From a virus (lineage: Duplodnaviria; Caudoviricetes): a DNA stretch of 60,505 bases. Positions 1,812 to 59,038 of this stretch are shown here, piece by piece. Each line of letters begins with the position of its first letter. The first letter of the stretch is position 1. The notes under the pieces were generated by a model that was not told the DNA's origin, made no database searches, and worked only from the letters and a program-made list of their open reading frames with translations. The translations under genes were made by a program, and so were the position numbers. The stretch spans positions 1-60,505 of IMG/VR virus record IMGVR_UViG_3300031672_000001. One strand, given 5' to 3'.

Positions 1812-2041
1812 CGACGCCTCCCGACGCGCTCGCCTACAGCGCGCTCGATAGCGAACCGCGCACCCGGGCCAGCCGCCTGCGCGACTGCAACCTCAATGTC
1901 CGCCTCGGTTCGGACGAGGGTCATCGTGTAGCCGTGGCACTTCTCCCAGCCATGCGCCATCGAGGAAGCGAAACTCGTGGTGCTCCTCCGCCCGCAGACC
2001 TCGCAGCGCAGGTGGGAGTCGCTTTGACCCGGAGGCGTCAT
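1808..2041 (-). CDS. small hypothetical protein with CxxC
   Basis: coupled ORF in the early operon. Confidence 0.55.
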   Translation of the reverse strand: MTPPGQSDSHLRCEVCGRRSTTSFASSMAHGWEKCHGYTMTLVRTEADIEVAVAQAAGPGARFAIERAVGERVGRRR

Positions 2042-2310
2042 TCGCTCGCGATTTCCCCTCGGATCGGGAGAATGACAGGCGCCGATGAGATCTCCTCACA
2101 CTTGATCGCCACCCAGTCGCCTGCCGGCTCCGTGATTTCTCCGGGCCACCGCGCGATGGCGGTGGCCACTGCGGCATACGAGTGATCGGCGTCCACCACC
2201 CCGACGAACTCGAGCGACGACGACATCTCGCCCCCGAAGTCCACCGCACCAGTGGGCTCACCGTCGGTGTCGAGTGCCCTCCAGATTGTGTATCGCATCA
2301 GTTCCTCCAT
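2038..2310 (-). CDS. hypothetical protein
   Basis: coupled ORF. Confidence 0.55.
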   Translation of the reverse strand: MEELMRYTIWRALDTDGEPTGAVDFGGEMSSSLEFVGVVDADHSYAAVATAIARWPGEITEPAGDWVAIKCEEISSAPVILPIRGEIASE

Positions 2311-2472
2311 TCGGTGTTGGTTTCGTCCCTAAGCGTCATCGTCCTGCGGCACGGCGGTCAGTAGGAACAGCGCGTCGAGCGCGTCGGCGGCCATGCCCAG
2401 CTCGTTCAAACGGTCCGTCCTCGCCTTCCCATTGCTCCACGGCGACGATCAGGTTTGCGCGGGTGTCGTCCA

Positions 2473-2961
2473 TTACGCTGCTGCCTCCTCGACTGGTTGC
2501 CATCTACGGTTCGTGATCCTGCGTAAAGCGGGGAACAATCCGACCGCTTCGACAGACCAGGCAATCGACTCACGCCAGTGGGGCTCCAAGTAGGGCGAGA
2601 GATCGAGCAGACCGTCATCGAACTCCCTGTGGTGAGTAGCTCGGCAGAGGGGGACGACAGCGCGGGGATCGTCGCCCGCTGCCGACGCGAGACTCCGGTC
2701 CACAAGATGTGCAGGATCACACGGCTGGCCGCCGCAAACGACACAAGCTCGATCCTTCACGAGCGCTCTCTGCTCAGACGTGGCGGGTGAGATCGCACGC
2801 CTAGCGGCTCGAGGCGGAACACGTTTGCTCCGCTTCGCTCCCCGCCGTTCAGCTTTACGTTGCTCTCGACGTTCACGGTCTTCGCGTAGGGAAGTCTTAA
2901 AGCGGTTCTGCGCCTCGCTTGCGGACGGTGGCACGTCGGGCTCGTCCTCTTGAAAGGTCAC
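2473..2961 (-). CDS. HNH-like nuclease (Ref/DUF968-like)
   Basis: CVVCG...DPAHL...VVPLCRATHHREFD; GTG start overlaps the upstream stop. Confidence 0.7.
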   Translation of the reverse strand: MTFQEDEPDVPPSASEAQNRFKTSLREDRERREQRKAERRGAKRSKRVPPRAARRAISPATSEQRALVKDRACVVCGGQPCDPAHLVDRSLASAAGDDPRAVVPLCRATHHREFDDGLLDLSPYLEPHWRESIAWSVEAVGLFPALRRITNRRWQPVEEAAA

Positions 2962-3380
2962 GACACACCCCGCTTTGCGGGAGCGATGATGGCGAGCAGC
3001 TTGCCCCGGCGAACCTTGGCAGCGAAGTGATGTGACTGAGCGGGGACCGACCCCATACGCCAACCACCCGGGCCGTGCATCTCGTCAGCTAGGGCGACAA
3101 GCTCGACGGAAACGCCGAAGTCGTCGGTCAGCGGATGGATCAGTGACGCGGACCCGTTATATCCGCTTTGCACGGGCTTACGAAGCCTAAGTGTCGGCCA
3201 GTCTAAGCACGACGCCATGGCCTGATCGATGGTTTCTTTCACCCTAATCTTCCCGGCGGGAGGCTTCCTGCGATGCCCGAGTTTGATCCTCCCTCGGATC
3301 AACGCGTAGGCTTGGATCGTGTCCCAGCCTGGAGCGACTTCCCACACGTCTAGAGAGCGGAGTAGAGATGAGCGCTTCAC
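2958..3380 (-). CDS. hypothetical protein
   Basis: coupled 140-aa ORF. Confidence 0.55.
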   Translation of the reverse strand: MKRSSLLRSLDVWEVAPGWDTIQAYALIRGRIKLGHRRKPPAGKIRVKETIDQAMASCLDWPTLRLRKPVQSGYNGSASLIHPLTDDFGVSVELVALADEMHGPGGWRMGSVPAQSHHFAAKVRRGKLLAIIAPAKRGVS

Positions 3381-3955
3381 GCTGCCCTCCTAAGTCCGGC
3401 GCCGGAGGCTTCGGCTTCGACACGCTGCGATTTGTAGCGGCGAGTGCGTTCCTTATTACATGTCCGGCATGCCTTTTTGCCATTGGGTTCGACGTAGGTG
3501 TTAGTCGCGTCGAACGGGTGGCCGTGCTTGCAGTGGGTCAGACTTGCCGCTCGCTCTACGAGCGTGCGCCTACCACGCGCGCGGTCCTCATCCGTGAAGC
3601 CATAGGCCGTGCCCATCTCGCGATGGACTCGCGCATGCTCTGCATGCCCGCTGAGCACTTCTAGGTTCTCGGGCCGATCGTCGCCGCAATCCAAGTTGAG
3701 ATGGTGGGCTATCTCAGATGGCAGCAGCTCGCGCCCAATCTCATTCCATGCGACGATCCGAGACCAAAGGTGGTAGCTACCATCGCGGCATCTAACCCCC
3801 CAACGCCCCGCACCGCATTGGAACCAAACCCCCCTAGGGCCGGGCTGGGCATGACTGATCGCCGCCCGGTGCGCATCCGAGAGCGGCCTTCCCCTCCGTG
3901 CCGCGCTGATCTTCGCTTTCGCCTCGGCACTTAGCGGTACGCCCCTCGGAGGCAT
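3377..3955 (-). CDS. NUMOD3/HNH homing endonuclease
   Basis: LSAEAKAKISAARRG (NUMOD3), AHHLNLDCGDDRPENLEV (HNH), THCKHGHPF...CRTC tail. Confidence 0.85.
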   Translation of the reverse strand: MPPRGVPLSAEAKAKISAARRGRPLSDAHRAAISHAQPGPRGVWFQCGAGRWGVRCRDGSYHLWSRIVAWNEIGRELLPSEIAHHLNLDCGDDRPENLEVLSGHAEHARVHREMGTAYGFTDEDRARGRRTLVERAASLTHCKHGHPFDATNTYVEPNGKKACRTCNKERTRRYKSQRVEAEASGAGLRRAA

Positions 3956-4377
3956 TACGCAGCGCTCCTTAGGCTAGCTCCCGATCCTTCACACTCAAGC
4001 TTGTAGGCGCTGAGCAGACTGCGTTGCGCCTCCATCTCGGCCTTCAGGGTGCTCACACGTTTTTCAAGGCGTTTGCGCTTGGATGAGAGCATCCGCTGTG
4101 CGCCGAGCATCTCCGGTGGCATCGCACGACGACCGAGACGCTCACGCATCGGCTCGGATGGCAGCTTGCTCCCAGCCTCACTCGCGTCCCACAAGCCGAC
4201 CTCGAACTCGTCCATCCAATCGTCGTAGAGCTGCTGGACTCCCTTGACTTCGGTCCCGTCACGGTCCCTGTAACCGTCGAGCTCGCGCGCAACCGTGTTG
4301 GCTTCCTTGGAGCGGGTATCCAACTCGGCGGCTATCTCGTCGAGACGCGCCATGCAAGTGGTCGCATCGGACATCAC
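3955..4377 (-). CDS. coiled-coil hypothetical protein
   Basis: coupled ORF. Confidence 0.6.
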   Translation of the reverse strand: MMSDATTCMARLDEIAAELDTRSKEANTVARELDGYRDRDGTEVKGVQQLYDDWMDEFEVGLWDASEAGSKLPSEPMRERLGRRAMPPEMLGAQRMLSSKRKRLEKRVSTLKAEMEAQRSLLSAYKLECEGSGASLRSAA

Positions 4378-4991
4378 TCGCCTCCCTTCAGCTTGACCGT
4401 GACGCGACGCTTGCCCTGCGGCTGCTCACGCTTCGCGGCATCCAAAGCATCGCTCGTGCCAGGCACCTTGCGAAGCGCAGCGATCGCCGAGGCGACCGGA
4501 GTGATCTTTGCGTCCGCGCGCTCGACCGTGACTGTCACGCCTGCAACCTCGATGGAGAGTGCCTGCTTGACCTTGCGAGCGATCTCACGCGGGTCAGCGT
4601 CCCACGGGACACTCAGCTCCAACACGACACGACGGTTGAGTGCTTTAGCTGCCGCGTCCGAACTGATCGTGGCAGCATCAACGAGGCCCTGTAGCTCCAC
4701 TTCGAGCAGATCCTCAGGGTAAGACGTGGTGCCGGCTGTCGGGCTCGCAGCTTTGATCTCCCAACGCGTCTCGCCGTCGTCAACATGTGCTGTCCAGCAA
4801 GCATCACGATCCAATCGAGAGACCAGCTCGTCGCTGACCACGCTCTCGGCTTCGGAGAGTTCCTGTCTGATGCCGTGAAGGTCCGTGACGAAGGCGGCGA
4901 GGCGTGCTGTCTCGGCAGTCCTCGGGTCCAGTACCTCGCCCGAGACCCGATTGACGACAGTCAGCTCCTGGCCTGTTGGCTCAGTGCTCAT
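4374..4991 (-). CDS. hypothetical protein
   Basis: coupled 205-aa ORF. Confidence 0.65.
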   Translation of the reverse strand: MSTEPTGQELTVVNRVSGEVLDPRTAETARLAAFVTDLHGIRQELSEAESVVSDELVSRLDRDACWTAHVDDGETRWEIKAASPTAGTTSYPEDLLEVELQGLVDAATISSDAAAKALNRRVVLELSVPWDADPREIARKVKQALSIEVAGVTVTVERADAKITPVASAIAALRKVPGTSDALDAAKREQPQGKRRVTVKLKGGE

Positions 4992-12828: not shown

Positions 12829-13062
12829 CTAACGCAACCGTTTCAGGAGCCGCGATGCGGCCCCACCAATATCTCCCGCGAGTATCGGCTCGCGAGCAGT
12901 GACCTTCTTGTCCTTCAAGTTGCAGACCGTCAATTCGTGGAGGTCCCGGTACTCACGGCCTCGCTTGCCTCGCACCATGCTCCCGACGGTGAGCCCGAGG
13001 AAACAGTGCTTTCGGGATGCTGTCTCAGAGAGGGATACGTACTCGACGCTTGCCTCAGCCAC
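12829..13062 (-). CDS. hypothetical protein
   Basis: ORF with AAGGAG RBS. Confidence 0.45.
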   Translation of the reverse strand: MAEASVEYVSLSETASRKHCFLGLTVGSMVRGKRGREYRDLHELTVCNLKDKKVTAREPILAGDIGGAASRLLKRLR

Positions 13063-13257
13063 TGGACCGCGCTCCTTAGACGTTTTCGATAGGACGTGTG
13101 GCAGGACGCGGGAAGTCCCACGGCTGCAACACGGGTTGATTGATCGGCGCTTGGGTCGTCGTCACTTCGGGGTGGACGACTTTGGGATACAGGCATTTCC
13201 ATTCGCCGTGATCCCGTCGCCCACACTCATGGCAGCGACCGCAGCAGGGACACGCGC

Positions 13258-14121
13258 TCACCGTAGGCTCCTAATCCCGCGCGCCCACAAAGCACACAGG
13301 CGGTTGTAGTGAGCGGAGGGATAGGCGTGTTTATAGGGCGGGTGCGCGCAGTTATGTCCATGCGGGTTGCGCTTGCTGTATGCGCCCAAGAGCCTCCCCA
13401 GTTCCACACGCCGCCGGCTCGGAGAGGGCTTCGGCTTAGGCTTGGGCTTAGGCTTCGGTGTGGGCTTGGGGCGCGGCTTGGGAGCAGGCACGAGCGCCGG
13501 ATGCGCGATCGACAAGAACGCTCGCGTCACACGCGACTCGTCTAGGTTGCGCCCGTACGCCCTGTCGGTCCACTGTGTCCCGTCAAACCCAGGATCAATG
13601 TGCGGCGCGCCGTTGTAAAACGCGTCCCACTCCCACACCTGAGAACGCGTGATCCGTGCCCGCTCAAGAATGGGACGGATCTGCGACGTCCACTCTGACC
13701 AGTCGGAATACACGCACGGCTTGCGCCATCCCGCTTTGATCTCTGAGTGGACCCAGCCGGGAACCTCGGATGGTGTCGCGTCGCCCGGCTCCACGTCTAG
13801 ACAGTCCGCGTGGTACCGGGCACTGATCGCGATGCTTACCGTGTGCGCTGAAGGAAAGGCTTTACGCAGTGGGATGAATGTCGGCCAATGTCCTGCCGTG
13901 TAGCCGGCGAGAGCGAACGGGTCGCGTGGTACCGTCGAGACCTCGATCGAGTCGAACATCGCCACGGTCGAAACCGGCGCAAGACCAAACGACGGCGGAG
14001 GACCAACCGTCGCCCATCCCGCAGGACGCGCACTACCCGTGGCGGACTGTGAAGGGCCGTGACCGCACCCCGCAACGATGAGCGCGGTGACGAGGGCCGC
14101 AAGAATAGTTACGCGTCTCAT
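13258..14121 (-). CDS. endolysin, GH25-like glycoside hydrolase with lipoprotein signal
   Basis: LIVAGC lipobox; LDVEPGD, PCVY, GTQW...DES motifs; Pro-Lys linker. Confidence 0.75.
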   Translation of the reverse strand: MRRVTILAALVTALIVAGCGHGPSQSATGSARPAGWATVGPPPSFGLAPVSTVAMFDSIEVSTVPRDPFALAGYTAGHWPTFIPLRKAFPSAHTVSIAISARYHADCLDVEPGDATPSEVPGWVHSEIKAGWRKPCVYSDWSEWTSQIRPILERARITRSQVWEWDAFYNGAPHIDPGFDGTQWTDRAYGRNLDESRVTRAFLSIAHPALVPAPKPRPKPTPKPKPKPKPKPSPSRRRVELGRLLGAYSKRNPHGHNCAHPPYKHAYPSAHYNRLCALWARGIRSLR

Positions 14122-54867: not shown

Positions 54868-55324
54868 CCTGCGGAGTCTCCAGCTCGCCGCCGAGCCGCA
54901 CCACGCGGGCACGGGCACCATACTGGCTTCTCCCGCTCATGCCGTTCAACTCGAAGCCGAACCTCTTGCAAAGCATGTTCGGCCGTGTAGGCGCGCTTCC
55001 GCCAATACGCGATCTGCGCATCGCGCTCAGCTAGGACGCTCCCCAACGTCTCATCACTCGGTTGGAATGGATGCGCTAGCCCATCCGCATCGGGCAGTGG
55101 GTGTGGCCCGGGTGGTATCTCCCGGTGCACTCGATGCTCGCGTGGACGACCACAACCCTCGCGGCCACACAGCTCCCAGTCGCTCATGTTGACCTCCTGT
55201 CATCCGCGCCCACCAAGGCGCGGCCCTTAGGGCAGTCCATCTCCTCGCGGGGCTTGTACGGCCAGCCAACGCCCAGCTCGTAGGCTGCGAGTTCCCGCAA
55301 GATCGTCAAGCGCTGTTCACTCAT
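54864..55324 (-). other. two small hypothetical genes (54864-55187, 55184-55324)
   Basis: ATGA-coupled ORFs. Confidence 0.55.
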
Positions 55325-55426
55325 GCCGTCGCCTTCGCCCTCAACCGCGATGCCCAGTCCACTGTCCACAGGTCGATCTCGGCGCGTGGCCCCTTCTCGA
55401 TAGATGGGGTATCCACTTTGATGGCC

Positions 55427-56389
55427 TCACAGCATCTTCATCTGAGGCGTGAGCAGGTTCCGGTAGGGATGCGGTTCGGTCACGACGCCCTGCTCGATCA
55501 GTCGGTAGAACAGCAGCCCGCGAGAGCGGCTGGACCGGCGGTTGAAGCGGAACACGTACTCGTCCAGGTAGTAGTCCAACTGCTCGCGACTCATGCCGCC
55601 CTGGTGCGTGCCGAGAAGCCACCGCTTCAAGAGCGACGCGACGCGGTGAGCGTGCGGCATGGCGACGTGCGCGTCCGGCGACTCGGGGTCACTCATGCTC
55701 GTGATTTCGTGCCGATAGTTGAGCTTGCCGATGTCGTTGTAGCCCGCGTAGGCGTCCGTGTGGATGATCGAGCCGCGCTTGACGTTCGCCAACACGAAGT
55801 CGGTCAGCGTGTCCTTCTCGGTGTTCGGGACGCGCGCCAGTCGGACGCGGCCTGCGCCGTGCTCGTGGGCCTCGACGGCGATTACCACGATGGCCTTGCC
55901 GAACGGCGAGCGGCCCTTAGTCTTGGCCGTGGAGAGGCCACCGACGAACGTCTCATCGACCTCGACCGTCACGCCGGGACCGCCGATCATGTCGCGGTCG
56001 GGCCGCACCATCGCACGGCGCAGCTTGTGCATCCACGCCCACGCGGTTTGGTAGGAGCCGAAACCAAGCTCGCGCTTCAAGCCGAGCGCCGAGACGCCGT
56101 TCTTCTGACCGCAGACGTGCCACATGACGTGGAACCACGTCCGCATCGGGTAGCGCGTCTTGTCGAAGATCGTCCTGGACGTGATCGACGTGCGCTTGCG
56201 GCACGCCTTGCAGCGCAGCGTGCCGCCCTTCATCCGCCACGGCTCGTCAATCACTCCACAATGCGGGCACACGAAGCCGTTAGGCCAGCGGATCTGCTCG
56301 ACGTAGGCGAGGCACGCGGCCTCGCTGTCGAACCGTTCGATGAAGTCCTTGAAGGTGCGCGGGTAGTCGGCACTTGCAGCCGGGGTCAT
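55427..56389 (-). CDS. IS1595-family DDE transposase
   Basis: RWPNGFVCPHC..CKAC Zn ribbon; VEVDET, IHTD, YLDEYVFRFNRR. Confidence 0.95.
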   Translation of the reverse strand: MTPAASADYPRTFKDFIERFDSEAACLAYVEQIRWPNGFVCPHCGVIDEPWRMKGGTLRCKACRKRTSITSRTIFDKTRYPMRTWFHVMWHVCGQKNGVSALGLKRELGFGSYQTAWAWMHKLRRAMVRPDRDMIGGPGVTVEVDETFVGGLSTAKTKGRSPFGKAIVVIAVEAHEHGAGRVRLARVPNTEKDTLTDFVLANVKRGSIIHTDAYAGYNDIGKLNYRHEITSMSDPESPDAHVAMPHAHRVASLLKRWLLGTHQGGMSREQLDYYLDEYVFRFNRRSSRSRGLLFYRLIEQGVVTEPHPYRNLLTPQMKML

Positions 56390-57303
56390 TGGCCGTCCCC
56401 AAGTCTTGTGTCCGCAGATGACGGGTCCGAGCGATACTCGGGCCGGGACGGAATCGGAGTCTCCCTCACGGCCTTGGCGAGTGCCCGCGTCACGCGGAAA
56501 GCGTTGGTCGCTTTCTCCGACTGCTTCTTACCGGCGATGGCGTCCGAGCACTCAGCGGCGACAGTCCGCACGATCCACGCTTCACACTCAGTTGGATCGC
56601 CTGCGAGCGCAGCGGTGATACACACACGCGCCTGGGCGCGGTATTCGTCGGCTAGGGCAGCTTCCCACGGCTCGGCCAACAGGTCGCGCCAACGTTTGCC
56701 CTCGGGTGCGTACTCCCGCTCGAATAGGGCGGCGGCCCCAGCCTCTATGGCGTCGTCAGGAATCATTGCGGTACATCATCAAGCTGCGGTTGCATTGTGA
56801 GCAGTTTGCCTGCCTGTCCGCCCCGTTGGCGGACGAGAGGTCCTCTACAAAGGCTGGTTCAGCCTCACCTGCGACGAGGACGGCCTCGACGCACTGAAAG
56901 CACCAACGACGACCTTGGTCGTCGCGGCACCCGATCAGACGGGAGCCTTCGCCATCTCCGCTCGATGGGTAGGTACGGAAGCTCATCGGTCGGCCCACCG
57001 CTCTGTGTCGAAGCGGTCCCGCGCAGCCGCTTCGGCGGCCTCCATCTTGGCCGTCTGCTCGCGATTGACAGCGCGCTCGGCGACAAGCTTCGCCGTCTCA
57101 AGCGTCGAGTACTGGTCTACCGGCTCGTCATCTACGTAGAGATTCCAGAACGTGCCGACGTAGCCGTTGGACTCCCGGTCGTCAACGTAGTGGCGCATGA
57201 TCCGCAGGCCGGGGATGCCCTTGGCCTGGTAGCCATCGCAGTAGTCGCCGCTGGCGCTCGGGATACGGCTCCAGACGATCTTGCTTGTAGGCTTGGCTTG
57301 CAT
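56386..57303 (-). other. three IS passenger genes (56983-57303, 56756-56986, 56386-56766)
   Basis: coupled ORFs inside the TIRs, downstream of the promoter TGGTACAAT (57375-57383) and AGGAGG. Confidence 0.75.
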
Positions 57304-57766
57304 CAGGGATACCTCCTGGTGTCAGGCCCCCGGCCGTTCCAGCGGTGCGGGGGCGCTTTGCGTTCTGTAGTTGGATTGTACCACAGATCGGGCCAGCTAA
57401 GTAGATACCCCATCTCGATAGACCCATCCTTTGCGCCTACGGGGAGCTTGTGACAGCCGCTCAGGCAGACGAGTTGGGCGTCATCGTCGTAGGCTAACCC
57501 GTTGAGAGAATCGAGACAACCCTTGATTAGGTTGTCAAGATCCGATGAGGCGTGCGCCCCTTAGAACCGCATCGACGCCGCGAACGGCGCAGCTCCTAAC
57601 GATGGTCGGCCAGCCACCATCCACTCTGCTTGCACGAGCAGGCGGTAGGTCTTCGAGCGTGCCGGCAAGTAATGCTTGCCTCGCTGAGTACGGGAGCGTT
57701 GCAGTGGGACGGGCTTGCCGGGGATGATGAGTTTGATCGCCTCGGACTGCTTGAGGGTCGTGGTGC

Positions 57767-59038
57767 TCATGCGGTCCGCTCACTCGTAGAGGCCAACTCG
57801 TAAGCCATCAGTCGTTCCCCGACCCACTGGGCGACGGGGACGCTGACCGCGTTCCCGCAGGCTGCGTATCCAGGTCCGTCGGGTCGTCGGTGAGCGGCCA
57901 TAGCCAATCGTCGGGGAAGCCCTGAAGGCGCAGGCACTCGATCACCGTCAGGCGCCGCACCGACGACATAGTTGGTGTTGTGGCCTTGGCCGGTGCCTCC
58001 AGGGTCTCGTCGGAGCGCGTAGGCGATGCCTCCGACATCGTTGCTGCCGGGTCGCATGTGGGATCGGACGGTCCCGGCGATGAGAGGCGTGCCGCGGTCG
58101 GTGCCGTCTTCGCCGGCATCGAAGCCCTCGGCTCTGAGGGTATGGGTGATGAGGGCGTCGGTGGCGTCGCTGTCGGTGCCCTTCCCGTAGCGCTTGACGA
58201 TGGCTGGAGCGACTTGGAGGTGTCCGCCGGCAGCCACCTCGGCACTTGTGTCGCCAGTACGCCCGCGCCTAGCCTGGAGCGTGCTGACGATGTTCCTGTC
58301 ATCCTCTTGTCGTCGTCCCGGTGCTGAGACGCCAGGACCGCTAGAGCCTCGGCTAAGGCTCGCGGCAACTCGCAGCCCCGCTTCTCTGCGCGGCGCAAAA
58401 TCCCCGCCGCCGCTCTCGGGCTCAAGTAGAACCTCTCGGGCACTTCGTCCAACAGCACGTCGGGCAACGATGAAGACGCGTCGCCGGCGCTGGGGCACTC
58501 CGAAGTAACGGCTGTCCAACACTCTCCAGGCGAGATCGTGAAACCCGATGTCGCCCAGCGTGCGGACCACGACAGCGAAATCTCGTCCACCGGCGGAACT
58601 GAGCAGGCCGGGGACGTTCTCAAGGACGAGCCATCCGCCAGGTCGAACAAGCTCATCGGCGACGCGGGCGAACTCGAAGAACAGTCCGGAACGCGCTCCG
58701 GCGAGACCGGCGCGCTTACCAGCGACAGAGAGGTCTTGACAGGGGAACCCGCCGCAGAGCAAGTCAACACTGGCGTCCGCACGCCCGAGCGGAACTCGTG
58801 GCCGTTCAGCGTCGGGCTTACCTGCGTCTCGGTCCACTTGTCCGGGTCGGATGGTGGCCCAGCTCCGCGATGAGACTTCTCGAATGTCCTTGAAGCAGGG
58901 GATGTCGGGCCAGTGTCGGGCGAGGATGCCTCGACAGTAGGCATCGGCCTCGCATTGGGCGACGATCCCCATGCCTGCGAGCTCGAAGCCGCGATCGAGT
59001 CCGCCGATGCCGGAGAAGAGGCTGCCGACCGTGAGCAT
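57767..59038 (-). CDS. C5 cytosine DNA methyltransferase, alpha subunit
   Basis: LFSGIGG, GFPCQ, ENV, QRRRR, GNAV (motif X); motif IX is missing in this frame. Confidence 0.92.
   Translation of the reverse strand: MLTVGSLFSGIGGLDRGFELAGMGIVAQCEADAYCRGILARHWPDIPCFKDIREVSSRSWATIRPGQVDRDAGKPDAERPRVPLGRADASVDLLCGGFPCQDLSVAGKRAGLAGARSGLFFEFARVADELVRPGGWLVLENVPGLLSSAGGRDFAVVVRTLGDIGFHDLAWRVLDSRYFGVPQRRRRVFIVARRAVGRSAREVLLEPESGGGDFAPRREAGLRVAASLSRGSSGPGVSAPGRRQEDDRNIVSTLQARRGRTGDTSAEVAAGGHLQVAPAIVKRYGKGTDSDATDALITHTLRAEGFDAGEDGTDRGTPLIAGTVRSHMRPGSNDVGGIAYALRRDPGGTGQGHNTNYVVGAAPDGDRVPAPSGLPRRLAMAAHRRPDGPGYAACGNAVSVPVAQWVGERLMAYELASTSERTA

Follow-up and report, generated by a model that had tools for sequence, protein, structure and literature searches.

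Introduction

The published passengers of insertion sequences (IS) of the IS1595 family are mostly regulators, resistance genes or methyltransferases, located in bacterial chromosomes and plasmids, and a 2009 account by Siguier, Gagnevin and Chandler reportedly gives ISNwi1+ and ISPna2+ as examples of the transporter IS (tIS) subgroup. Two other kinds of mobile module bear comparison, namely integrons, in which a tyrosine-recombinase integrase acts with attC-type sites between cassettes behind a fixed promoter, and the MPME elements of mycobacteriophages, which are about 440 bp long, hold one small open reading frame (ORF) and are not IS1595-like. Here we describe a cargo-carrying IS1595-family element of 2,010 bp in a viral contig (Duplodnaviria; Caudoviricetes; IMG/VR record IMGVR_UViG_3300031672_000001), the whole 60,505-nucleotide stretch of which is referred to below as the window, together with the lineage to which the element belongs. 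This lineage keeps three modules, the ends, a leader of ~110 nt and the transposase, whilst the sequence separating the last two is swapped out entirely from copy to copy, and the same ends mobilise transposase-less cassettes in phages. According to 10.1101/2021.05.26.445724, the term tIS covers elements that are built like an IS but also hold passenger genes, and such elements are said to occur in the IS1595 and IS66 families alone; in PMC3429520 phages are held to tolerate insertion sequences poorly and are judged unlikely shuttles for them. Set against the latter judgement, the present lineage lies largely in phage contigs, its cargo changes by copy and it has spawned cargo-only cassettes.

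The window element resembles described tIS in its single IS1595-type transposase, inverted ends, 8-bp target-site duplication (TSD) and passengers inside the ends, but in its lineage the cargo lies between a conserved promoter-like/leader module and the transposase and is probably coupled to the latter in translation. No two copies keep the same full set of cargo genes, the encoded proteins are small and belong to no known family, and the carriers are mostly phage contigs. Its likeness to plain ISSod11-type elements lies in ends reading ...GGGTATC, the 8-bp duplication and a transposase that combines a zinc ribbon with a DDE domain; among plain relatives the nearest (1.02-1.05 kb) are ~50% identical. 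In these plain forms, by contrast, no more than 45-121 nt precede the transposase gene, and both hairpin leader and passengers are absent. As in an integron, a fixed promoter region precedes a variable array of promoter-less genes, but the lineage has no integrase or attC-like sites and is moved by a DDE transposase; an integron-like cassette array was rejected on the grounds that this transposase is the only enzyme and that the ORFs overlap by 4-11 nt or abut, with no spacer for recombination sites. MPME elements are likewise short, with inverted ends, and scattered among related phage genomes, but they differ from the window lineage, which has a full transposase, variable cargo and cargo-only cassettes. 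Literature searches, with supplementary material outside their scope, returned no description of a phage IS1595 lineage with changing cargo, of its leader or of its cargo-only cassettes.

Results and discussion

A cargo-carrying IS1595 element in a phage contig

The viral contig is 60.5 kb long, is estimated to be 57% complete and holds a single, intact copy of the element, at window positions 55404-57413. According to PMC8101967, IS1595-family elements have a C-terminal DDE_Tnp_IS1595 domain and an 8-bp TSD, with an N-terminal Zn_Tnp_IS1595 zinc finger in every group but IS1016, and ISSod11 was not recovered as a single clade in the tree published there. The minus-strand gene at 55427-56389, taken from the ORF list, encodes a transposase of 320 amino acids, and its stop codon abuts the inverted repeat. 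The catalytic domain matches PF12762 (DDE_Tnp_IS1595; 1.8e-30, profile positions 5-153 of 153), the zinc ribbon matches PF12760 (Zn_ribbon_IS1595; 3.6e-18, residues 22-65), and the protein also matches NCBIfam NF033547 (1.9e-54, 184.8 bits against a cut-off of 75). Residues H248, K255, E277, R281 and R284 are invariant in all five transposases aligned, which fits the signature that we take to mark the ISSod11 subgroup (DDHK with E-R(+4)-R(+7), and an end pattern of nnnGcnTATC); the window element may belong to this subgroup.

The terminal inverted repeats (TIRs) were located by direct reading, repeat finder and motif scan at 55404-55426 (transposase-proximal; repeat I1) and 57391-57413 (cargo-proximal); the two 23-nt arms, which differ by three mismatches, read ATGGGGTATC. 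Among the inverted repeats of the region the finder ranked the arms 55402-55426 and 57391-57415 as longest (25 nt, 88% complementary), and within the 60.5-kb window the 17-nt end motif matches these two places and no others, where chance alone would give 0.07 matches. Outside the ends, direct reading and the repeat finder give an exact 8-bp duplication, CTCGATAG, at 55396-55403 (repeat D15) and 57414-57421, so that the element has both the duplication and the inverted repeats of its family; none of these four features has a strand. The first-pass annotation had described a 2,010-bp element with 23-bp TIRs carrying three mismatches and an exact 8-bp TSD, all of which was upheld, and its description was accurate in every detail that could be checked.

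The interval from the cargo-proximal end to the transposase holds three further minus-strand ORFs, inside the ends as in a tIS: c1 (56983-57303, 106 amino acids), c2 (56756-56986, 76 amino acids, with two CxxC pairs) and c3 (56386-56766, 126 amino acids). The stop of c1 overlaps the start of c2 as ATGA, c2 and c3 overlap by 11 nt, and the stop of c3 overlaps the transposase start, again as ATGA. With the Pfam and NCBIfam matches and passengers inside the ends, the earlier call of an IS1595 transporter element is genuine, and we consider it probable that the block is an autonomous tIS of this family. None of c1, c2 and c3 matched Pfam or PHROGs, and NCBIfam likewise returned nothing. Protein c1 is predicted to form a beta-sheet with a long helix, in a confident model (predicted local distance difference test, pLDDT, 78.8) that had no Foldseek match at E ≤ 0.001 in PDB or BFVD; its Atlas look-alikes are small unnamed proteins of Actinomycetota and phages and serve as leads only. 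Two relatives of c1 were found, none of them in viral contigs, at 54-65% identity with conserved blocks, and both begin with the same five residues as c1. The suggestion that the three genes look like phage early genes did not hold, given that none of the three matches Pfam or PHROGs, that c2 and c3 are without relatives and that the relatives of c1 start with the element's own first codons.

A constant frame with changing cargo

Neither the element nor a 6-kb stretch had a megablast match among cultured phages, and tblastn of the transposase against the same phages gave only three records, each below 34% identity. Closer transposase relatives occur in viral contigs (L002, 88%, and L003, 80% amino-acid identity), in two Solirubrobacterales metagenome-assembled genomes (MAGs; L004 and L005, 72-73%) and at six metagenome loci of at least 70% identity (L064 to L069), two of which, L064 and L065, are the same element. 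Together these yielded eight complete elements, three in viral contigs, three in metagenome contigs and two in the Solirubrobacterales MAGs, of 1,504, 1,827, 1,838, 1,873, 2,010, 2,133, 2,550 and 2,630 bp, every one flanked by an exact 8-bp duplication and each at a different site; the ends of L002 are perfect inverted repeats. In a quick maximum-likelihood tree the eight cargo-carrying transposases fall on one long branch (Shimodaira-Hasegawa-like approximate likelihood ratio support of 100). Outside this clade 22 of 23 resolved elements are plain, 1,022-1,047 bp long with 45-121 nt before the transposase gene, the other being L031 (2,596 bp); transposase identity to these plain relatives of ~1.03 kb is about 50%.

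Most members of the lineage are in phage contigs. The MAG contigs that hold L004 and L005 are 0.48 and 1.47 Mb long; L004 lies among DNA methylase genes, and L005 has methyltransferase and glycosyltransferase genes as neighbours and lacks a phage marker in the 4 kb scanned on each side, so that the lineage is not confined to phages. The metagenomic element L066 is near a serine recombinase. The earlier label ‘phage-adapted’ thus does not fit the two of eight complete elements in Solirubrobacterales MAG contigs, one of them without a phage marker within 4 kb.

When the complete elements were compared in all 28 pairs, similarity was limited to the first 24-134 nt, where detected, and to the stretch from the transposase gene to the far end, with the exception of L002 and L003, which also share their last two passengers. 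The first 134 nt of the window element and L002 are 96% identical, including the first eight codons of the first gene, after which the two diverge until exactly the transposase ATG. The transposase genes of L004 and L066 are 90% identical and their cargo is unrelated (three genes versus two). The closest transposase, that of L069 (90% over 195 residues), has none of the window's passengers upstream, and contigs of other soil sequencing runs match either the transposase to its start or the leader to the first c1 codons and then continue into unlike sequence. The comparison of copies that the first-pass annotation had proposed thus gave varying cargo with ends, leader and transposase kept.

Two comparisons bear on how the cargo moves. 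The L003 element has a G + C content (GC) of 0.63, as does its cargo, against 0.44 and 0.41 in its flanks, and the passengers therefore arrived with the element. The passengers shared by L002 and L003 are 99.4% and 95.5% identical in nucleotides (synonymous divergence, dS, 0.017 and 0.07) whilst their transposase genes are 80% identical (dS 0.62), which indicates recent cargo exchange between long-separated elements. The proposal that the IS moves early-gene modules between phages is thus partly sustained, in that the cargo travels with the element and copies differ, and unsupported as regards ‘early genes’. As a separate observation, the L003 element (1953-4582 of its contig), with 63% GC and an intact 8-bp duplication, sits in a 91-kb phage contig with flanks of 41-44% GC, which suggests recent movement between very different genomes.

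The eight elements hold 25 passenger ORFs, two to five per element, amongst which there are only three related pairs. Scans covered 23 of the 25, the two omitted being at least 91% identical to scanned ones; none of the 23 reached the Pfam cut-off and one matched a PHROG family, of unknown function. All 25 show a coding signal in that GC at the second codon position is the lowest of the three, the ratio of nonsynonymous to synonymous divergence (dN/dS) is 0.15-0.55 in the three cargo pairs, and GC at the third codon position (GC3) is 0.64-0.91, nearer that of phage genes (0.58-0.80) than that of the transposases (0.81-0.93). Relatives of two cargo families occur as ordinary phage-contig genes (L147 and L148) with neither ends nor transposase in 5-8 kb, and for this reason ‘phage-type small proteins’ is a fair guess at what the passengers are.

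Cassettes lacking a transposase

A search of viral contigs with the 17-nt end word found ten stretches in eight contigs, L002 and L003 among them, and in six further phage contigs the same ends bracket cassettes without a transposase. Exact 8-bp duplications flank four of these cassettes, namely L150 (620 bp, 12991-13610), which holds a relative of L003 c3, L151 (506 bp), L153 (1,370 bp), with a relative of L002 c4, and L149 (1,468 bp, 3410-4877), which holds a DPPY-motif protein and pieces of L002-type cargo. The remaining two, L155 (2249-3034) and L157 (1091-1876), have a 786-bp cassette encoding an N6_N4 DNA methylase (PF01555, 2.5e-28), and neither has a matching 8-bp duplication. In addition, L152 is a truncated transposase, and L154 and L156 are solo ends. 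The carrier phages show only distant protein similarity to the window.

Several smaller features were seen at these loci. The first gene starts inside the inverted end in the L149 cassette (the DPPY-motif protein) and in the L155 and L157 cassettes (the methylase). At least three sites are present on a single 67-kb phage contig, namely the L150 cassette, a truncated transposase next to an end (L152, 1717-1973) and a solo end (L154, 2801). Upstream of the L149 cassette, an ORF at 2255-3199 consists largely of a short repeated peptide unit (ARDAW/ARAAW-like), with long open frames on both strands. Amongst the 12 target duplications scored (window, L002-L005, L065-L067, L149-L151 and L153), seven read CTnnnnnG in the scored orientation, which may hint at a weak target preference.

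The leader and transcription

When the eight cargo-proximal ends were aligned, the same order was seen throughout, with the inverted end followed by a TGnTAnnnT box, hairpin 1, hairpin 2 over a ribosome-binding site, and an ATG; the leader adjoins the outer end directly in all eight and includes the first codons of the first gene. In the window, where all of these features are on the minus strand, direct reading and the alignment place the extended -10-like box, TGGTACAAT, at 57375-57383, its TGnTAnnnT pattern being invariant in 8/8 elements. Alignment, RNAalifold and covariation place hairpin 1 at 57326-57354 and hairpin 2 at 57304-57318; the 5' arm of the latter overlaps the ribosome-binding site AGGAGG (57317-57312), 8 nt ahead of the c1 ATG. 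Hairpin 1 has ten pairs, five of them with compensatory changes across the eight elements, and its loop is conserved whilst at least three complementary versions of its stem occur. Across the two hairpins 94% of cells pair, and changes on both sides are seen in 9 of 15 pairs; the observed covariation score was reached by none of 500 shuffles, and slid controls pair at 32-56%. The hairpin leader of the first-pass annotation (57354-57326) thus stands, backed by covariation and not by folding energy. No Rfam family matched the leader; a Guanidine-II match on the opposite strand inside c2 scored 20.7 bits against a gathering score of 32 and was taken as chance.

The leader is absent from the plain relatives and from the cargo-only cassettes, and because cassettes without it still have target duplications it is not needed for transposition. 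We infer that it is an expression-control module. The element has the same orientation as the surrounding phage genes and no terminator-like site was found in 55200-57700, in agreement with the absence of an evident terminator reported before; read-out of transcription into downstream phage genes is plausible on these two grounds. An RNA sequencing run (X4) contained three exact 151-nt contigs, one in c1 (57125-57275) and two in neighbouring phage genes, which is no proof of transcription given that DNA is possible in such libraries; two other runs (X5 and X6) did not cover the cargo stretch, which is uninformative by itself. A contig of run X3 links 56389 with 57292, a point 11 nt into c1, across a stretch of undetermined letters, and may be a sister element without cargo or with other cargo. 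A 16-nt word around the -10-like box had eight matches in viral contigs, six of them unrelated and without inverted ends, though several looked promoter-like. This word recurs ahead of genes in unrelated viral contigs (L056, L059, L060 and L063) that lack the inverted ends and looks like a shared promoter-type sequence.

Competing explanations

Taken together, the comparisons point to a history in which the whole block moved as a single unit into a RusA-like phage gene, at codon 119, duplicating 8 bp. A single transcript from the internal box would carry c1, c2, c3 and the transposase, the last probably being made by translational coupling as the final and least-translated gene, and in the absence of a terminator transcription would probably continue into the phage genes that follow. 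We take the passengers to be, most likely, small accessory proteins recruited from the pool of phage genes; their retention would reflect neutrality or a benefit to the carrier, as it would for the DNA methylase of the sister cassettes. On the broadest form of this explanation soil phages trade small accessory genes, including restriction-blunting DNA methylases, through the lineage as a dedicated vehicle, with promoter and leader as a plug-in expression site, genes entering in frame at a point a few codons past the start and just ahead of the transposase, and cargo-only cassettes moved in trans. We regard this dedicated-vehicle explanation as less likely than not, at a probability of roughly 0.3.

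An unlikely alternative, though one that must be weighed, is that the passenger ORFs are non-functional and that the variable stretch is tolerated filler which spaces the transposase from the promoter and damps its translation. It would account for c2 and c3 being without relatives, for the poor model of c3 and for the lack of a Pfam match in 23 scanned passengers, but not readily for frames that in each element are open throughout and terminate in start/stop overlaps, for coding-like composition in 25/25 with dN/dS of 0.15-0.55 in three pairs, for relatives of c1 at 54-65% identity and its confident fold (pLDDT 78.8), or for cargo families some of which are also ordinary phage genes. Less probable again is that the passengers belong to the transposition machinery, as transposase regulators or cofactors like the small zinc-finger repressor of IS1. 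Plain relatives transpose without passengers, transposase-less cassettes carry a DNA methylase, no passenger is conserved (three related pairs among 25 ORFs, gene number two to five), and L004 and L066 have unrelated cargo next to transposase genes that are 90% identical; these facts outweigh, in our view, the co-orientation and tight coupling of passengers to the transposase in 8/8 elements, the two or more CxxC pairs in 4/25 passengers and the weak likeness of L067 c2 to the transposase zinc ribbon (PF12760 E 0.0049, below cut-off; blastp E 0.04). Derivation of the passengers from the transposase was considered separately and rejected, the best blastp E-value being only 0.04.

It could also be that c1-c3 are resident phage genes which were caught between IS ends, by in-place capture or in a composite of two partial copies, and have never moved. 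Base composition gives this some encouragement in the window, where cargo GC (0.64) is the same as that of the flanks (0.62-0.64) and cargo GC3 (0.69-0.82) is nearer phage genes (0.58-0.80) than the transposase (0.90). An exact 8-bp duplication nevertheless brackets the whole block, whose removal in silico leaves a continuous RusA frame; the leader abuts the outer end in 8/8 elements, cargo GC in L003 is that of the element and not of the flanks, and both relatives of c1 start with the element's own first codons. In-place capture is largely refuted by this evidence and we regard it as very improbable.

Returning to the tIS explanation, a number of results weigh against it. No contig in four sequencing runs joins 55403 to 57422 to give an empty site, neither of the two flanking proteins has a close relative among viral contigs, where no empty-site allele was seen, and the window itself offers a single copy whose ends have three mismatches. 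A consensus -35/-10 scanner found no promoter in the element, which leaves the extended -10 promoter of the first-pass annotation as a conserved motif only, its box being the part that stood. The folding energy of the leader is ordinary (z-score -0.14), and hairpin 1 has no G-U pairs, so that a protein-bound DNA palindrome could give the same covariation. The tree came from a quick, not finished, search of 85 distinct full-length rows, with partial matches and identical copies excluded, and many loci outside the clade, on short contigs, were left unresolved by the strict test of ends and duplication. As for the passengers, c2 had no relative in a word-indexed search, c3 had none there or when 1.84 billion representatives were searched in full with HMMER, and the model of c3 is poor (pLDDT 57, Atlas scores below 0.9); c2 and c3 are putative proteins on the strength of frame structure and composition.

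If the dedicated-vehicle explanation is true, transposition would be, besides recombination, a regular source of phage mosaicism, against the general finding of poor IS tolerance. Provided that the passengers help the carrier, the lineage would offer accessory genes a homology-independent route between unrelated phages, one copy being in a phage ~20 GC points lower. The conserved leader is a compact, testable case of an IS controlling an operon that ends in its own transposase, and the 25 passengers provide screens of phage-host conflict with a set of small, apparently mobile proteins.

The insertion site

The target of the window element is, as read from the sequence, a broken RusA gene, a feature absent from the first-pass annotation. 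Its first 119 codons, encoding a RusA-like resolvase by PF05866 and PHROGs, lie on the minus strand at 57414-57770 with an in-frame TAA at 57561-57563, and by ORF reading the remainder of the frame past the insertion, the last 24 codons and a stop that overlaps the start of the next phage gene, lies on the same strand at 55321-55403. Excision in silico of the element and one copy of the duplication restores a single continuous RusA reading frame. The 119 upstream codons match PF05866 (1.4e-10, profile positions 1-107 of 124) only with the TAA read as X, and PHROGs agree weakly with the assignment; there is no whole-domain match in one open frame, the TAA falling at codon 70 and the element cutting the gene at codon 119. 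Other insertions are also inside open frames, L066 and L067 each mid-gene, L002 ten codons before a stop and L004 in a DPPW-motif protein identified by motif alone. As the elements land inside genes, RusA in this case, insertion is disruptive and is not aimed at safe sites.

Two further observations concern the interrupted frame. Between 57413 and 57301 the RusA frame is uninterrupted for 36 codons, running across the inverted end and the leader to a TGA whose A is also the first letter of the c1 ATG (TGATG); this arrangement is present in only 3/8 elements and so is probably no conserved coupling device. The in-frame TAA at codon 70 (57561-57563) is identical, without differences, in contigs of another sequencing run.

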